Part shown: piece by piece, positions 8,209 through 64,000 of the stretch
Layout of the letters: the number at the start of each line of letters is the position of its first letter
Position numbering within the stretch: position 1 is the first letter of the stretch
Source of the DNA: a bacterium
GTDB taxonomy: Bacteria > UBP15 > UBA6099 > JAJRTR01
Assembly (NCBI GenBank): GCA_024278215.1
Contig: JAJRTR010000140.1
Location: 6,716 to 70,715, forward strand
Reading direction: 5' to 3'
DNA length: 64,000 nucleotides
Notes under the pieces: model-generated
Told to the model about the DNA's origin: nothing
Seen by the model: the letters and a program-made list of their open reading frames with translations, nothing else
The model's database searches: none
Position numbers and translations under genes: made by a program

Positions 8209-8490
8209 AGCGGTATTATATATGTTTTATTAAAATGAACCAAATACAATTTTCCAATATCCTGAACGGTTATGACCAATCATAATTTCAACCCAAAGAG
8301 TCCGCGGAGAGGGAGATAACAAATAAACTGAACTTGTGCGTTTTCATAAAAGGTAGTGCCATGTCAACAAAGAGAAGATGTAAGATGTGGTAGCGTAAAA
8401 ATAATAAAAGTGTAGGGCGGAGTCACCGTACCCCGCCTCAACTTGTGCCTGCACAAACCGTTTCCGCGAGAAATATGTTCAGACGGAGTT

Positions 8491-8510
8491 CAGAATTTTG
8501 CAATTGGCTC
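8491..8510. repeat. Solo right-end terminal repeat of the 179-bp foldback element
   Basis: CAGAATTTTGCAATTGGCTC is identical to the right end of the full copies. Upstream sequence is unrelated to the element interior. Confidence 0.7.
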
Positions 8511-13494: not shown

Positions 13495-13678
13495 ATTTAT
13501 TCGGCCCCTTTTTGTTATTGCGGAAACTATACTCTCACATTACAGTTGAAGAAGGAAGGTGTCAAGAGATAATCTATACATGTAGCAGCGCTGAAATTGC
13601 AAAAAAATTGATTTGAAGTTACGATCTTAGTGGTGCTGACAGGTTATTATGGGACAACATGATATAGAATACATGTCA

Positions 13679-13857
13679 GAGCCAATTGCAATATTATGTT
13701 CGTAGCGAGGTCGAGCGAAATTATCCAGAGCAAGGAGGAGGTGTAAAATCCTCGCTGGCGTACTTGTAGAGTACGTCGAGAACGATTTTGTACCGACAAC
13801 GCAGCTATGGACAACCAGCAGCCAACCGCAGCAGAATCGTAATTTTGCAATTGGCTC
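13679..13857 (+). mobile_element. MITE-like foldback element, copy A (179 bp)
   Basis: Starts GAGCCAATTGCAATAT and ends ATTTTGCAATTGGCTC. Flanked by direct repeat GTCA/GTCA. About 90% identical by eye to copies at 24499, 26443 and 54043. No credible ORF. Confidence 0.85.
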
Positions 13858-13884
13858 GTCAGACAATGGAGCGGGTGGTTTAAT

Positions 13885-15333
13885 ATGGAACTGAGTCACG
13901 CTCACCTGCGCATCGGTGCGAGCGATGTGAAGAGCGATCTCAAACAGCGGATGATCAACAGGCTTCACTGGATACACGTGATGCGCTGGTTCGCGGTGGG
14001 CGTCGCATGTATCGCGATGCTTTCCGCGTGGTTTCTGTACAGGCTGCCGCTCCATTACGCCGCGCTTGCGTCTTCCGTACTGCTGCTTGCGATATTCAAT
14101 GTAACATTTACATACGCCGGGCGTCGTTTCGATCATGAAACCACGCCGATGTGGAAATTCAACCGCCTGATATATTCAGAAATATCTGTCGATTTCATAT
14201 TGCTCGCCTGCATGATTCACCTCACCGGCGGGATCAGCAATTTTTTCGCTTTCTATTACGTTCTGCATATCGTAATCGGCAACCTGCTCGTGCCGCGCAA
14301 GGTCGGCTATTTCATGGCGGCCATGGGCACATTGCTCGTCGGTGCAGTCGCCATTCTCGAAATGAAAGGTATCCTGCCTCATTATTCACTGGGTTCCTTC
14401 GCGCCCGACAACGCTTATGCCGAACCCGGCTATGTGTTCCACTACATGATCATTTTATCCGGACTGCTTTTCGCCATGTCTTATGTCGCATCTACTCTTT
14501 CCATGATGATTTACCGAAGGGAACGCTACCTGACCGAACTGAAAGAAAAACTCGAAGTATGGAACCGGCAGATGCGGCTTGCAAACGACCGTCTCATAGA
14601 GATCGACAGGACGAAAACGCAGTTTATGCGGCTGTCGGGGCACGAGATACGCTCGCCCCTGAGCGCGATGCTAAGTATAATGCGGACGATACTCGAGGGG
14701 TACGTCAAGGAAGAAGGGAAGATACTCGAGATGATCGGCCTGGCGAACCGGCGCGCGAACGAAGCGCTCGAGATCACTAATAAGCTCCTGCAACTCGCCC
14801 GCGAAAAAGGCAAAGACCTCGAACCCGAATCCTTCGACATGATCGCCGAAACTATAGCGGAGATCAAGGAAATCGGGCCGCTCGCCGAAAAACATTTTGT
14901 CAGTGTCGACCTCGAACCCCCGACCGCCGATTCGATACTCGTGCATGTAGACCGCGAAAGTTTTCGCCTGGCTGTTCAGAATCTTCTTTCAAACGCGATA
15001 ATATATTCGAACCCGGAAAGCAGGGTAACCGTGCATCTCGAAAAGTGGCATGACAAGGGCATGGTGATCATTGTCGACCGCGGTATCGGCATACCCGAGG
15101 AGTTCATGCCCGGCATCTACGACGAGTTCAGCCGCGCGCGCAACGCACGCAAACACGACCACTCGGGCACAGGGCTCGGCATGTCCATCACAAGGCAGGC
15201 GGCCGTCAACATCGGCGGCAGCATCACCGTCAGAAGCATTTCGCTTCAGGGAACTGTAGCCCGCCTCACGGTGCCGCTCAGGAAAAATGAATCGTCGGTC
15301 GACGACTCCGAAGCGCAACAGCAACTCGCATAA
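13885..15333 (+). CDS. Membrane sensor histidine kinase
   Basis: N-terminal TM helices. HisKA H-box (LSGHEIRSPLSAM). HATPase N, G1 and G2 boxes (NLLSNAIIYS, DRGIGIP, GTGLGMSI). TAA stop. Confidence 0.85.
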   Translation: MELSHAHLRIGASDVKSDLKQRMINRLHWIHVMRWFAVGVACIAMLSAWFLYRLPLHYAALASSVLLLAIFNVTFTYAGRRFDHETTPMWKFNRLIYSEISVDFILLACMIHLTGGISNFFAFYYVLHIVIGNLLVPRKVGYFMAAMGTLLVGAVAILEMKGILPHYSLGSFAPDNAYAEPGYVFHYMIILSGLLFAMSYVASTLSMMIYRRERYLTELKEKLEVWNRQMRLANDRLIEIDRTKTQFMRLSGHEIRSPLSAMLSIMRTILEGYVKEEGKILEMIGLANRRANEALEITNKLLQLAREKGKDLEPESFDMIAETIAEIKEIGPLAEKHFVSVDLEPPTADSILVHVDRESFRLAVQNLLSNAIIYSNPESRVTVHLEKWHDKGMVIIVDRGIGIPEEFMPGIYDEFSRARNARKHDHSGTGLGMSITRQAAVNIGGSITVRSISLQGTVARLTVPLRKNESSVDDSEAQQQLA

Positions 15334-24498: not shown

Positions 24499-24667
24499 GA
24501 GCCAATTGCAACATTATGTTCGTAGCGAGGTCGAGCGTAATTGTTCAGAGCAAGGCGGAGGTGTAAAATCCTCGCAGGCGTACTTGTAGAGTACGTCGAG
24601 GACGATTTTGAGCCGACAACGCAGCTATGGTGGCCCTAACGAGCAGAATTATCGTAATTCGTGGCTG
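24499..24667 (+). mobile_element. MITE-like foldback element, copy B (right end decayed)
   Basis: Left end GAGCCAATTGCAACAT and the interior match copy A. The right terminal repeat is degraded to AATTCGTGGCTG. Confidence 0.75.
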
Positions 24668-24822
24668 AACGAAAACCCTGAAAGGAAGAATTCATAAAAA
24701 GTGCAAACGAAGATATGTCACGCTCTTTCCAGTTATTATGGGATATGGGATGTAGATATCGTCTCGACTGTTGTTTGTGCTGTTTTTACTTTGATTCAGG
24801 CTGCTCATATTGTTGCAAATAT

Positions 24823-25530
24823 TCAATGGGCGCTAAGATCGTTCATCGCGTGCTCGACTATCTCATAATCTTCCGGCGTATCCACATCAAGCGAATAAAT
24901 ACGATCATATTCCACGAATCCGACATTCCTGCCGAGGTATACGTGTACGCCGGTACGCCCTTCCGTGGCGAACAGCACGGATGCGCGGACAGCCATTACA
25001 GCCCCGTCCAGCAGATAGAGGTCGGGCAGCAGTTGGCGGCGATAATCCCCGCACTCCATGAACGGTACGAGCGCGCCGTTCTCGTCTGCACGCTTCATCC
25101 ACTCCGGCCTCTGGTTTACCCTGAATGCCGACACGACGGAATCGTATTCTGAATTCACGAGTTTTTCAATAATTTCATCAATTGCGCCCGGTTTCCGCAC
25201 GGGGACATTTGTCTGCATCAACACCGCCACATCAGTCTTCACACCTTCCTGCGCCTCGAGGTGTCTCACAACATGACGGAGCGAATCCTCGATGGCGGCG
25301 GTATCGCCGGAAATATCTTCAGGCCGCCGGACGACCTCCGCCCCGAACTCACGCGCCACGGCTGCGATGTCGTCCGCGTCGGTGGATACTATCACCCTGT
25401 CGAGCTTCTCCGCCGCCCGCGCCGCCTCGATCACATAGCCTATCATCGGTTTGCCGTTTATCGGTTTTATATTTTTTCCCGGCAATCCTTTACTGCCGCC
25501 GCGCGCCGGTATGATTCCAACTATGTACAT
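24823..25530 (-). CDS. Acylneuraminate (CMP-sugar) cytidylyltransferase family protein
   Basis: IIPARGGSKGLPGKNIKPINGKPMIGY motif of CMP-NeuAc/CMP-Kdo-type synthetases. 235 aa. Confidence 0.8.
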   Translation of the reverse strand: MYIVGIIPARGGSKGLPGKNIKPINGKPMIGYVIEAARAAEKLDRVIVSTDADDIAAVAREFGAEVVRRPEDISGDTAAIEDSLRHVVRHLEAQEGVKTDVAVLMQTNVPVRKPGAIDEIIEKLVNSEYDSVVSAFRVNQRPEWMKRADENGALVPFMECGDYRRQLLPDLYLLDGAVMAVRASVLFATEGRTGVHVYLGRNVGFVEYDRIYSLDVDTPEDYEIVEHAMNDLSAH

Positions 25531-25545
25531 TTTCCCCTCTTCCTC

Positions 25546-25935
25546 TCATTCCGCCGTTATCCTGAGTGTCCTGCCGTCTTCACCGATATTTGTGAACAGG
25601 TCTATGGGCTTGCCCTTTTCCAGCATGCCGAGAATCTCTTCCAGACTCGATTCCGAACCTGGGATAGACGACTCTTTCGGGATGAACCTGAAAAACAGCC
25701 TCACCAGCGACATCGGTATGCGTATCGGTGTCAGGTTCTTGTACTTCCCGGACGATTTCCCTCTCATCTCGACACTCAGCCATCGCAGTTCTTCTTTGCT
25801 TTCTGCACAGGACGAACCTTTTTTCTCGGACTTGTCCAGAGCTTCAATCAGCCGCACACCCTGCTCGGGCGTTATATTGCCGTCCTTTATCATGTTCAGT
25901 ATCTCGAGTTTTTCCTCGCTGTCACTCATGTTCAT
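25546..25935 (-). CDS. SHOCT-like domain protein (partner of DUF2089)
   Basis: EEKLEILNMIKDGNITPEQGVRLIEAL motif. Sits immediately downstream of the DUF2089-like gene on the same strand. Confidence 0.55.
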   Translation of the reverse strand: MNMSDSEEKLEILNMIKDGNITPEQGVRLIEALDKSEKKGSSCAESKEELRWLSVEMRGKSSGKYKNLTPIRIPMSLVRLFFRFIPKESSIPGSESSLEEILGMLEKGKPIDLFTNIGEDGRTLRITAE

Positions 25936-26030
25936 ATCTCCCGCGTATCTGCATTTTTATGTTCAACGGCTAATTGTAACTATTCACAGAGGCTTTCGCT
26001 TCTGGTCTTTTGTGCCGGAAACAATCCCGG

Positions 26031-26402
26031 TCACAACTCCTCGAGCAGCATGGCGCCTTCGTCGGGAGTAAGGTCGCCCCTTTTTATTGAATCTATGATC
26101 TCGCGACGCCTTTTCCTGAGTGTCTCGGGGTCCGGTTTCCTGGCATTCGACAATTTTGCGATAACCAGGTCCAGCTTGTTCCTCACAGTAGGATAGGAAA
26201 GCCCAAGCCTTTTTTCCATTTCTTTTATGTTTCCGCGGCTGATCACAAACAGTTCCACAAAACGCGATTCTTCATCCGCCAGTGTCGAAAAAACACCGTG
26301 GCCGAATTCTCCTTCAATTGCAGTACCGCATTTCTTACATGTCAGCCTTGTTATCACCAGTTCGCTGTCGCAAACCGGACACTGGCTTACTGCCGGTTTC
26401 AT
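26031..26402 (-). CDS. DUF2089-like zinc-ribbon/HTH protein
   Basis: CPVCDSELVITRLTCKKCGT zinc ribbon, then SRGNIKEMEKRLGLSYPTVRNKL HTH, then a SHOCT-like tail (IKRGDLTPDEGAMLLEEL). ATG 26402 is preceded by GAGAGGA. Confidence 0.65.
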   Translation of the reverse strand: MKPAVSQCPVCDSELVITRLTCKKCGTAIEGEFGHGVFSTLADEESRFVELFVISRGNIKEMEKRLGLSYPTVRNKLDLVIAKLSNARKPDPETLRKRRREIIDSIKRGDLTPDEGAMLLEEL

Positions 26403-26442
26403 CTTTGTTATTGTCCTCTCTGTGGAAAATCCCAAGTCTATC

Positions 26443-26620
26443 GAGCCAATTGCAAAATTCTGATTCTGCTACGGTCGGCTGCTATTGTCCATAGCTGCGT
26501 TGTCGGCATAAAATCGTCCTCGACGTACTCTACAAGTACGCCTGCGAGGATTTTACACCTCCGCTTTGCTCTTAACAATTTCGCTCGACCTCGCTACGAA
26601 CATAATTTTGCAATTGGCTC
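26443..26620 (-). mobile_element. MITE-like foldback element, copy C (178 bp, inverted orientation)
   Basis: Perfect TIRs GAGCCAATTGCAAAAT / ATTTTGCAATTGGCTC. Flanked by direct repeat TATC/TATC. The reverse complement aligns to copies A and D. Confidence 0.85.
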
Positions 26621-26810
26621 TATCTTTCATTATTATAAAATTATTATTGAAATGTTTGATAAAATCAAAGGATAGTCTTCAAATAATCAACTGATCTCGT
26701 ATAAACATATTATGTCGGCCCACAGGAAATAATAATTATTTTAAAGATTGCATTGATATATTTCCGTAAAATACTAAAATATATATATAATTTTCAATTC
26801 CGGACTAAAT

Positions 26811-36291: not shown

Positions 36292-36307
36292 GAGCCAATT
36301 GCAAATA
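36292..36307. repeat. Solo left-end terminal repeat of the foldback element
   Basis: GAGCCAATTGCAAATA matches the first 14 nt of the TIR, then diverges. Confidence 0.55.
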
Positions 36308-47650: not shown

Positions 47651-47688
47651 AGAGCCTGTTGTAATGTTATGTTTGTCGCGAAAACCCC

Positions 47689-51223: not shown

Positions 51224-51358
51224 GCCGGGGTATCTTTTGAGGTGAGAAGTCACCGCAGGCGTACTTGTTTTGATTATCCCATCTATTTTTCATTTATCAT
51301 TTAACCGATTGAAAATCAATGATATAATTTTTTCTCGTTGTGAAAAGGAGATCCGCCT

Positions 51359-53046: not shown

Positions 53047-54030
53047 TTGAGTCACATGTTGATAATTAAAAGAGAAAATATTTTTGTAATTTTAACGATG
53101 ATAATCGGGCTGGCCGCCGCCGCGCGCCCGGCAGCCGCGCAGGTGATGCCCGACGACATATTCGACAATTGCCCGGAGGCTTTCGGCGACACGCTCAACG
53201 ATGTGCCCCCGGATATTCACAGCGTCGAGATCACGCCCGCAGCACCGGCACCCGGCGAAACGGTGACCGTCAGGGCGCAAATAATGACCGACAAATGGCT
53301 GACCGTTTATAAGGTTGAAAACGCCGTACTCACTTATATCGCCGGAGAAGCCGCCGCGCCGGTGGATGTCGAAATGAAACTTGCGGAACCCGGCAATTGG
53401 ATATGGGAAGCACAAATCCCCGGACAGCCCGAAGGCACTGTAGTCAAGTATGGAATCACAGCTCATGACGGCACGGGCAACGCGGTCGTGCAGCTTATCG
53501 AAACAGCGGGTTTCGAGCCGGGCCGCTTCACAGATGTGCTGGCCGACAAAGAGAACAAAGATATCGAAGGTTCGCTCGACCTGCTGGGACTTGCGATGAT
53601 GTCCGACGGAGAGAATTATTACTATTGCGAGGAATTCAGAACGCAGTTCAAATGGGCCACCTTCCGGGGTGCGGCGATCACCGGCGTCGGCTTCTATCCA
53701 CAGGATGTACGTGTCATTCCGGCCCATAGCATCACCGAAAACACTAACGCCTTCATAGGCTATGTCCCGGCTATCGGCATCAAGTCGATTATCGGCCTGA
53801 ATAATCTGAAAAACATAACCCAGGGCATCCCTGTTTCCATCAAAGTCAAGGGGAATAAAGTGTGTGGCAGGACGAAAATATCGGACCTCACGGACAAACC
53901 TGAACGCGGGCTGAAGATGTTCGCCGCCACTGCTGCTTACGACTTCAACGGCACTGGCAAACTCAATCTCAGCGACTCGACGCCTTATGCTATTGTGTAC
54001 TTCAAAGCAAATAAGTATATTGTGAAATAA
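53047..54030 (+). CDS. Secreted hypothetical protein (327 aa)
   Basis: Signal peptide FVILTMIIGLAAAARPAAAQ. Beta-rich. No family recognised. TAA stop 12 nt before MITE copy D. Confidence 0.55.
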   Translation: MSHMLIIKRENIFVILTMIIGLAAAARPAAAQVMPDDIFDNCPEAFGDTLNDVPPDIHSVEITPAAPAPGETVTVRAQIMTDKWLTVYKVENAVLTYIAGEAAAPVDVEMKLAEPGNWIWEAQIPGQPEGTVVKYGITAHDGTGNAVVQLIETAGFEPGRFTDVLADKENKDIEGSLDLLGLAMMSDGENYYYCEEFRTQFKWATFRGAAITGVGFYPQDVRVIPAHSITENTNAFIGYVPAIGIKSIIGLNNLKNITQGIPVSIKVKGNKVCGRTKISDLTDKPERGLKMFAATAAYDFNGTGKLNLSDSTPYAIVYFKANKYIVK

Positions 54031-54042
54031 CGGCAACCATTC

Positions 54043-54220
54043 GAGCCAATTGCAAAATCATGTTCGTAGCGAGGTCGAGCTAAATTGTTCAGAGCAAGGC
54101 GGATGTGTAAAATCCTCGCAGACGTACTTGTAGAGTACGTCGAGGACGATTTTATGCCGACAACGCAGCTATGGACAATAGCAGCCGACCGCAGCAGAAT
54201 CAGAATTTTGAAATTGGCTC
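54043..54220 (+). mobile_element. MITE-like foldback element, copy D (178 bp)
   Basis: GAGCCAATTGCAAAAT ... ATTTTGAAATTGGCTC. Flanked by direct repeat ATTC/ATTC. Lies between two + strand genes. Confidence 0.85.
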
Positions 54221-54290
54221 ATTCACAAAGGTGATTAACGTAATTGTTTGCAACTGTTTATCCTCCCGGCAGAGGCAACGAGGTGATACG

Positions 54291-55076
54291 ATGGCATACG
54301 AAGATATTATCTACGAAAAAAATGGTGGAAAAGCAAAAATTACGATCAACAGGCCGGAGGTCTTCAACTCGTTCCGCACGCAGACAATCGAGGAGATGAC
54401 CGCTGCGATGCAGGACGCCGCGGACGACGGCACAATCGGCGTGATCGTCGTCGCTGGCGAGGGTGGCAAAGCGTTCTGCGCAGGTGGCGACATCACCGAG
54501 ATGCGCGACCTCACACCCGCGGACGGTCGCAGGTTTGTCATGAAACTTTTCAATCTTTTCTCGCTCATCCGCAGTGCGCCGAAACCTGTTATAGCCGCGA
54601 TCGACGGCTACTGCCTCGGCGGCGGCAACGAGATAAATGTCGTTTGTGATCTCTCTATAGCAACAGAAAGTTCGAAGATCGGACAGGTGGGGCCGACCGT
54701 GGGCAGCACCCCCGTGCTCGCAGGCACTCAAATGCTTCCACGCCTCGTCGGCGACAAGAAGGCGAAGGAAATAATCTTCCTCTGCAAACGCTATACTGCG
54801 CGGGAAGCGAAAGATATGGGCTGGATAAACGAAGTCGCACCGGACGGCGAACTCGACCGCGTCGTGGACGAATGGTGCGACCGCATACTCGAGATGAGCC
54901 CTCAATCGATCCGCATCTCGAAAATTTCACTCAATTTCGAGAGCGACCACCTTCATGCCTCATACATGCACGGCATCGAAATGCTCTGCAACACCTACGG
55001 CAGCGACGAACTCAAGGAAGGGATGAACGCTTTCCTCGAAAAACGCAAACCGGATTTCAGCCGATTCAGAAAGTAA
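54291..55076 (+). CDS. Crotonase-superfamily enzyme (MenB/BadI-like enoyl-CoA hydratase/hydrolase)
   Basis: ATG 54291 after GAGGTGA. MAYEDIIYEKNGGKAKITINRPEVFNSF...GKAFCAGGD...IDGYCLGGGNE. The ORF-track N-terminal extension runs into the MITE. Confidence 0.8.
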   Translation: MAYEDIIYEKNGGKAKITINRPEVFNSFRTQTIEEMTAAMQDAADDGTIGVIVVAGEGGKAFCAGGDITEMRDLTPADGRRFVMKLFNLFSLIRSAPKPVIAAIDGYCLGGGNEINVVCDLSIATESSKIGQVGPTVGSTPVLAGTQMLPRLVGDKKAKEIIFLCKRYTAREAKDMGWINEVAPDGELDRVVDEWCDRILEMSPQSIRISKISLNFESDHLHASYMHGIEMLCNTYGSDELKEGMNAFLEKRKPDFSRFRK

Positions 55077-56238: not shown

Positions 56239-56725
56239 GAGCCAGTTGCAAAATTATGATTCTGCTTGATAAGCATTCTGTTATTCTGGGAAAGATTATG
56301 GGTAGGATTGCAAAACATCCAATTATAAAGCACGGGCAAAATGGCTGATGAAGTTTGTGATTCGGTTAACAAAACAGGACACACCTTAGGGATCACAATA
56401 AAGAGAGAAAGGATGTAATTGATGGGATATCTGGTGTAGTATGACACTAAAAGCAAAGATATTGTTTTCTTCGTCTTTAATCATTATTTGTGTTTTGGTA
56501 ACACTTTAGCCATGTGAAGCTGCACCTTGAAAACCTAACATGAAAAGGAATGGAAGGCATTGGGGTCAGACCTAGAATTATGCACAGAGCGGAAGTGTAA
56601 GGGGCAGAACGTGAATTGTAAAATTTGAGAATAGTTTATTGGCTCGGAATAGTTTTGTTCACGTCGGCTATTTGATCCTGTTGTCTTTCGACCTCTCGCT
56701 ACAAACATAATTTTGCAATTGGCTC
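56239..56725 (-). mobile_element. 487-bp variant sharing both ends of the foldback element (copy E, composite/nested)
   Basis: Left ~28 nt (GAGCCAGTTGCAAAATTATGATTCTGCT) and right ~38 nt (...CGACCTCTCGCTACAAACATAATTTTGCAATTGGCTC) match copy C. The AT-rich interior is unrelated and contains an extra TIR-like TTTATTGGCTC at 56635..56645. Confidence 0.7.
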
Positions 56726-63925: not shown

Positions 63926-64000
63926 GAGCCAAATGCAAAAAAGCACGTCGAGGACGATTTTATGCCGACAACACAGCTATGGACAATTGCAGCCGACCGC
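63926..64000 (+). mobile_element. Foldback element copy F: internally deleted, truncated by the window end
   Basis: GAGCCAAATGCAAAAAA joins directly to GCACGTCGAGGACGATTTTATGCCGACAACACAGCTATGGACAATTGCAGCCGACCGC, which is the right half of the element. About 85 nt of the left interior is missing. Confidence 0.7.

Follow-up and report, generated by a model that had tools for sequence, protein, structure and literature searches.

The 64-kb stretch of bacterial DNA analysed here (the window, taken at its full length) carries, in the intervals between its genes, a family of short repeats comprising three intact copies of ~178 bp, three damaged or variant copies and four relics. Genes found beside the intact copies include one for a histidine kinase (copy A), a DUF2089 operon (copy C) and an enoyl-CoA hydratase gene with its ATG at 54291, copy D lying between the latter and a gene for a 327-aa protein that ends with a stop at 54030. 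The members of the family, with their terminal inverted repeats (TIRs) and target-site duplications (TSDs), are as follows.

8490..8510 (+): solo right end of 21 nt that equals the family right end (CAGAATTTTGCAATTGGCTC), within a 690-bp intergenic region
13679..13857 (+): copy A, intact MITE, 179 bp; TSD GTCA at 13675-13678 and 13858-13861; left TIR with one mismatch
24499..24667, end approximate (+): copy B; 93-95% identity to the other copies over its first 132 nt; decay of the right arm and its TIR leaves the TSD unreadable
26443..26620 (-): copy C, intact MITE, 178 bp; both TIRs perfect; TSD TATC at 26439-26442 and 26621-26624
36292..36305 (+): relic of a solo end, 14-nt exact match (GAGCCAATTGCAAA)
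47652..47681 (+): relic of a decayed left end (GAGCCTGTTGTAATGTTATGTTTGTCGCGA), with 24/30 matches to that of variant E
51239..51268 (+): internal fragment, matching the middle of the left arm at 25/30 positions
54043..54220 (+): copy D, intact MITE, 178 bp; TSD ATTC at 54039-54042 and 54221-54224
56239..56725 (-): variant E, 487 bp; family left end (38 nt) and right end (28 nt); no TSD
63926..64000 (+): copy F; left TIR (two mismatches) fused directly to the right arm, with an internal deletion of ~75 nt; runs past the end of the window, TSD unreadable

All of the copies listed in a preliminary description of this DNA were present, at or within 1-2 nt of the coordinates given there, and its estimate that they are about 90% or more identical agrees with the pairwise identities of 89.9-95.5% that we measured among copies A, B, C and D. 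Their occurrence in both orientations and their intergenic location were likewise borne out. Because the copies differ from one another and have unique flanks, they are not artefacts of assembly, an alternative that the same description had raised. The smaller traces required some revision. The solo end near 8.5 kb was present with an extent of 21 nt, the one at 36292 was also found but its match spans 14 nt only, the internal fragment was recovered with the wider limits given above, and the decayed left end beginning at 47652 had been missing from the list altogether. The 487-bp copy does share the ends of the family, but its interior is unrelated.

Three genes lie directly downstream of copy C on the minus strand (24823-26435), encoding a DUF2089 protein (zinc ribbon and HTH), a SHOCT-like DUF2089-C protein and a cytidylyltransferase. 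The long plus-strand ORFs that overlie them (24715-25152 and 25261-26196) are probably spurious.

Terminal repeats, target duplications and secondary structure

The 16-nt TIR that had been proposed for the element, GAGCCAATTGCAAAAT, was matched 12 times in the window at ≤2 mismatches, compared with an expectation of 0.09, the mean of 100 dinucleotide shuffles, none of which reached 12. It is free of mismatches in copy C and carries 0-1 per end in copies A and D. Perfect 4-bp direct repeats, different at each of the three intact copies as first described, could be read directly from the sequence (GTCA, TATC and ATTC for copies A, C and D, respectively), the junctions of copy A reading gtca/GAGCC...GGCTC/gtca. 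The chance that three out of three copies would have perfect 4-bp flanks is ~6e-8.

Computational folding, which had been suggested as a check on the foldback, gave one long hairpin with a minimum free energy of -73.2 kcal/mol (z = -8.5), and the opposite strand gave -66.7 kcal/mol (z = -7.5). The left arm is ~70% identical to the reverse complement of the right arm along its whole length, while shuffled interiors averaged 55% and did not exceed 63%; the element is therefore a foldback over its whole length and not merely a pair of TIRs. The frame that reads through it specifies a peptide of 60 aa with no homologue among 5.8 billion predicted proteins, in keeping with the earlier view that the element has no credible ORF and that the recurring peptide is an artefact of the repeat.

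Variant E is built differently. Its interior (56279-56685; ~420 bp) has 38% GC vs 52% for the window and is single-copy, it contains no ORF and matches no IS, no Rfam family and nothing in the rest of the window, and the flanks of the variant (ACTG vs GGTG) form no TSD. The interior could represent a deleted parent IS, captured DNA or two solo ends; as a candidate for the first of these it was set aside, having neither tblastx nor blastn similarity to any IS of the clade described below. Because variant E shares only its 28-38-nt ends with the family, it suggests that what mobility requires is contained in the outermost ~40 nt at either tip.

Insertion sequences with the same ends

No transposase with matching ends had been seen in the window, and tblastn with the partner transposase described here found none in the 64 kb. 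We searched for the partner by scanning metagenome contigs with the 20-mer end of the element, which retrieved 21 loci. One of them, L020, contains a 1429-bp IS that terminates exactly in the 20-mer; its two ends are GAGGTAATTTCAAAAT, an imperfect inverted copy, and GAGCCAATTGCAAAAT. This IS encodes a 370-aa ORF with DUF772 and DDE_Tnp_1 (plus DDE_Tnp_1_6) domains, and its downstream (3') end equals the right end of the MITE over 21 nt (TCAGAATTTTGCAATTGGCTC). The same IS is inserted a second time at L050, where it is flanked by a perfect 4-bp TSD (ACTA). A further IS of 1426 bp at L048, whose transposase is 84% identical to that of L020, has the ends GAGCCAATTGCAAAATTC and GAGCCGATTGCAAAATTC; the first 17 nt of GAGCCAATTGCAAAATTC are identical to the left end of the MITE, and its TSD is consistent over the 3 nt available. 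Among the ISs examined, none matched the MITE beyond 17-23 nt at the tips. The search of public metagenomes for a longer element with the same TIRs, proposed in the preliminary description, thus yielded transposase-bearing ISs but no further copies of the MITE among the 21 loci.

Eleven to 12 of the 21 metagenome loci were discarded as chance matches immediately preceding the start codon (ATG) of a gag ORF like that of plant retroelements (L003, L006, L010-L013, L016-L018, L021 and L022). Three further loci share another, unrelated context, and L002, L014 and L019 have the end and no transposase. A genome collection scanned with the 20-mer end returned at least one locus, a solo end in a Nitrospirae MAG (L001) that is unrelated to the window; viral contigs scanned for the end gave no match, and the plasmid collection gave no DNA match to the MITE. 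In the Nitrospirae MAG (JADFXO010000013.1, 4800-4966), the 21-nt copy of the IS end has no second end and adjoins two hairpin repeats of the type ATTCCCGC...GCGGGAAT, which may represent a further family of small repeats in this MAG.

Comparison of the L020 transposase with plasmid genes that carry the annotation 'IS1182 family transposase' gave 42-48% identity across 99% of its length; among these genes is the 'IS1182-like element ISUnCu17 family transposase' of Aeromonas caviae plasmids. The best NCBIfam model was IS1182, but the score of 109 bits fell short of the 270-bit cut-off, so that the family label is taken from the annotation of these 42-48% identical homologues. The clade numbers at least 7,997 database proteins at E ≤ 1e-30, most of them on IS-sized contigs of ~1.3-2 kb, and its transposases are short (~365-375 aa) with DUF772 and DDE_Tnp_1 domains. 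Although the members examined range from 42 to 100% identity to one another, the ends of these elements of 1416-1483 bp (9 distinct ISs, 21 loci) all read GAG[CG]CNNTTGCAAAA, a motif of 15 nt. Within the TIRs, the self-complementary hexamer TTGCAA is invariant across the whole IS clade (loci L020-L052). This hexamer resembles a -35 box 7 nt from the tip, and at the left end of copy C (26608-26636) it is paired with a flanking TATTAT at 17-nt spacing.

For the entire IS1182 family, the direct repeats recorded in ISfinder span 2-60 bp (PMC7335449). Perfect 4-bp TSDs were present at five insertions of the clade, namely those of ISUnCu17 (ATGA) and of the Comamonas pBHB element (TGGT) and those at L028 (CAAT), L039 (TATA) and L050 (ACTA). 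L020, L026, L040 and several IS copies on short metagenome contigs have no perfect TSD; on such contigs, mismatched flanks are an expected effect of assembling a multi-copy IS. The window element shares with this clade the TIR sequence, the length of the TSD and the lack of a target consensus, and we therefore group it there. Its likeness to the ISUnCu17-type ISs (A. caviae pKAM643_2, Comamonas pBHB, Acinetobacter plasmids, L020/L050 and L048) consists in the common terminal motif and in 4-bp TSDs of variable sequence, whereas the MITE is only ~178 bp long, has no transposase gene and has a full-length foldback as its interior, which is unmatched beyond the tips. The literature searched contained no mention of ISUnCu17.

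Probable mobilization by an IS1182-like transposase

The explanation that we favour, with a probability of about 0.85, makes the element a MITE dependent on an IS1182-family DDE transposase supplied in trans, an enzyme that would recognise the GAGCCAATTGCAAAAT tips and cut the target with a 4-bp stagger. The MITE would be a non-coding foldback of ~178 bp in which nothing of an IS is left but the sites for binding and cleavage at its termini. A transposase of the short clade that includes ISUnCu17, acting in trans now or formerly, would bind the GAGCCAATTGCAAAAT termini; the element would then be excised or copied and inserted into DNA cut with a 4-bp stagger, at sites of no strict sequence, and repair of these cuts would produce the differing 4-bp direct repeats. 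We infer that the mobilising enzyme is that of the IS1182-like clade because of TIR identity, TSD length and the clade-wide conservation of the TIR motif. The parent IS is presumably located in another part of this genome or no longer present. A non-autonomous MITE moved by a DDE transposase that makes 4-bp TSDs is what had been proposed at the outset, and the ISs with identical tips do encode a DDE enzyme and have 4-bp TSDs. The partner then suggested, an IS5-group or IS701-like enzyme, was close at the level of the superfamily (DDE_Tnp_1), but the evidence points to IS1182, which is related to IS5.

Both IS5-group and IS701 elements also make 4-bp TSDs, and the MITE may have been moved by one of these families (IS5 group proper or IS701), with its TIR likeness to the IS1182 clade arising by convergence. 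This would accord with the fact that no parent IS was found and that the match to known ISs is confined to the tips. Convergence has, however, to contend with a 15-nt motif that recurs in every clade member examined and with two members that have 17-21 identical nt in common with the MITE at their very tips. IS5 ends in GGAAGGTGCGAA and targets YTAR, and neither the end nor the target applies to the MITE. We regard such an origin as distinctly unlikely.

Distribution among relatives and history of the family

In the protein database, the hydratase gene of the window is represented only from the window's own contig of 72.6 kb. The closest other contigs, L023 and L024, encode a hydratase 88% identical in protein, are ~74% identical in their coding DNA and are syntenic with the window over five genes; neither has an element at the syntenic positions of copies D and E. 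Altogether, ~41 kb of distinct DNA from relatives (L023, L024 and L044-L047) contained no copy and no TIR-like motif. At the density of the window ~4 copies would be expected in ~41 kb, and the family is therefore lineage-specific. The comparison with relatives had been proposed as a search for empty sites, and it did show the syntenic D and E positions to be free of the element, but a base-exact empty site with a single ATTC for copy D was not obtained, the intergenic DNA of L023 and L024 being too diverged to align.

These results bear on a reading of the element as a gene for a structured non-coding RNA or as a regulatory RNA leader, in which the hairpin is under selection and the TIRs and TSDs are incidental in appearance. 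Such a reading could draw on the very stable fold predicted for both strands and on the arrangement of the three intact copies, each of which presents the same end to a start codon 28-70 nt downstream. Against it stand flanking 4-bp repeats that differ at each site and tips that are the same as those of transposase-bearing ISs, and these two features already largely refute it. The relatives lack a copy at the syntenic sites and throughout their ~41 kb, and about half of the places in the window hold decayed or truncated copies. Rfam gave no match across the window at its gathering thresholds, nor in the surroundings of copies D and E at E ≤ 1, and neither a tRNA nor any other Rfam family was detected in the 64 kb. 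Across the three intact copies, a comparison of low power, none of the 66 predicted pairs was compensated, while 10 were broken on one side and 5 showed wobble changes. The preliminary description had preferred a transposon to an RNA gene and had named conserved syntenic positions with compensatory changes as the sign of the latter; its preference is upheld, and no such conservation was seen for D and E in L023 and L024. Overall, we consider an RNA gene highly improbable. Membership of the element among palindromic repeats of the REP/BIME type, dispersed by a Y1 (RAYT) transposase, is barely credible, for all its imperfectly palindromic form and a GTAG tetranucleotide near its left end (TTCGTAGCGAGG), given that REPs are 20-40 nt long and have no TIRs of this kind and no target duplications, whereas 4-bp TSDs flank three of three intact copies here and the tips equal those of DDE-transposase ISs, and that neither a RAYT nor the Y1/RAYT remnant reported earlier was located in the window by tblastn with an approximate E. 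coli RAYT query, a crude probe, or by comparison of 16 small ORFs with Pfam.

The description of the MITE family as apparently active was not supported: the intact copies differ by 4.5-10%, around half of the traces are decayed and the window contains no transposase of this kind. Given this divergence among the copies, the expansion of the family in this lineage is probably not recent. The observations fit a family that expanded once the lineage had split from the sampled relatives and has since decayed.

Position relative to genes

The right end of the element lies 28 nt upstream of the start codon of the histidine kinase gene at copy A (13858-13885), ~40 nt upstream of that of the DUF2089 operon at copy C (26402-26442) and 70 nt upstream of that of the enoyl-CoA hydratase gene at copy D (54221-54291). 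Copy B departs from this pattern. A bias in orientation towards gene starts was considered and set aside, three of the three intact copies fitting it and copy B not, and these numbers are too small to serve as evidence. Because its right end is so near to the start codons, the native promoter or 5' UTR of the three genes must include the element, and the right arm contains a weak, outward-facing promoter-like match (TGGACA-17/18-CAGAAT). It is nevertheless unlikely that the MITE has been co-opted as a portable promoter or 5'-leader module.

Relation to known elements and significance

Dense families of intergenic imperfect palindromes of ~100-180 bp, inserted in both orientations, include ERIC/IRU of the enterobacteria and Correia/NEMIS of Neisseria, and these repeats can be co-transcribed with neighbouring genes. 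The window element resembles them in general form, and no similarity of sequence is claimed; they have other ends and other TSDs (TA for Correia), and their presumed transposases are different or unknown. A nearer parallel is provided by the IS1182-family MITEs of Methanosarcina, for which ISMac2 is the partner and which have been described as 160 bp long, present in 14 copies and flanked by 4-bp direct repeats (PMC3852290). The ISMac2-derived MITEs of Methanosarcina acetivorans are likewise short (160-169 bp), multi-copy and non-coding, with TIRs; an IS1182-family partner has been assigned to them, and one of their two families has 4-bp direct repeats (PMC3852290). They differ from the window element in their archaeal host and in the length of their TIRs, 25-26 nt vs ~16-20 nt (PMC3852290). 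The two were likened by description and not by sequence, and we claim no relationship between them.

With IS1182-type MITEs with 4-bp repeats already described, the element is of an ordinary kind among the junk-DNA elements of bacteria, and knowledge of transposition itself is unchanged by it. What it adds is a previously unlisted MITE family in an uncultivated bacterium, together with a definition of the ends, GAG[CG]CNNTTGCAAAA, and of the 4-bp TSD for a very large and little-described clade of short IS1182-family transposases. The family also accounts for spurious ORFs and for the breaks that repeats cause in assemblies of such genomes, and the element marks recent insertions that are usable for strain typing.
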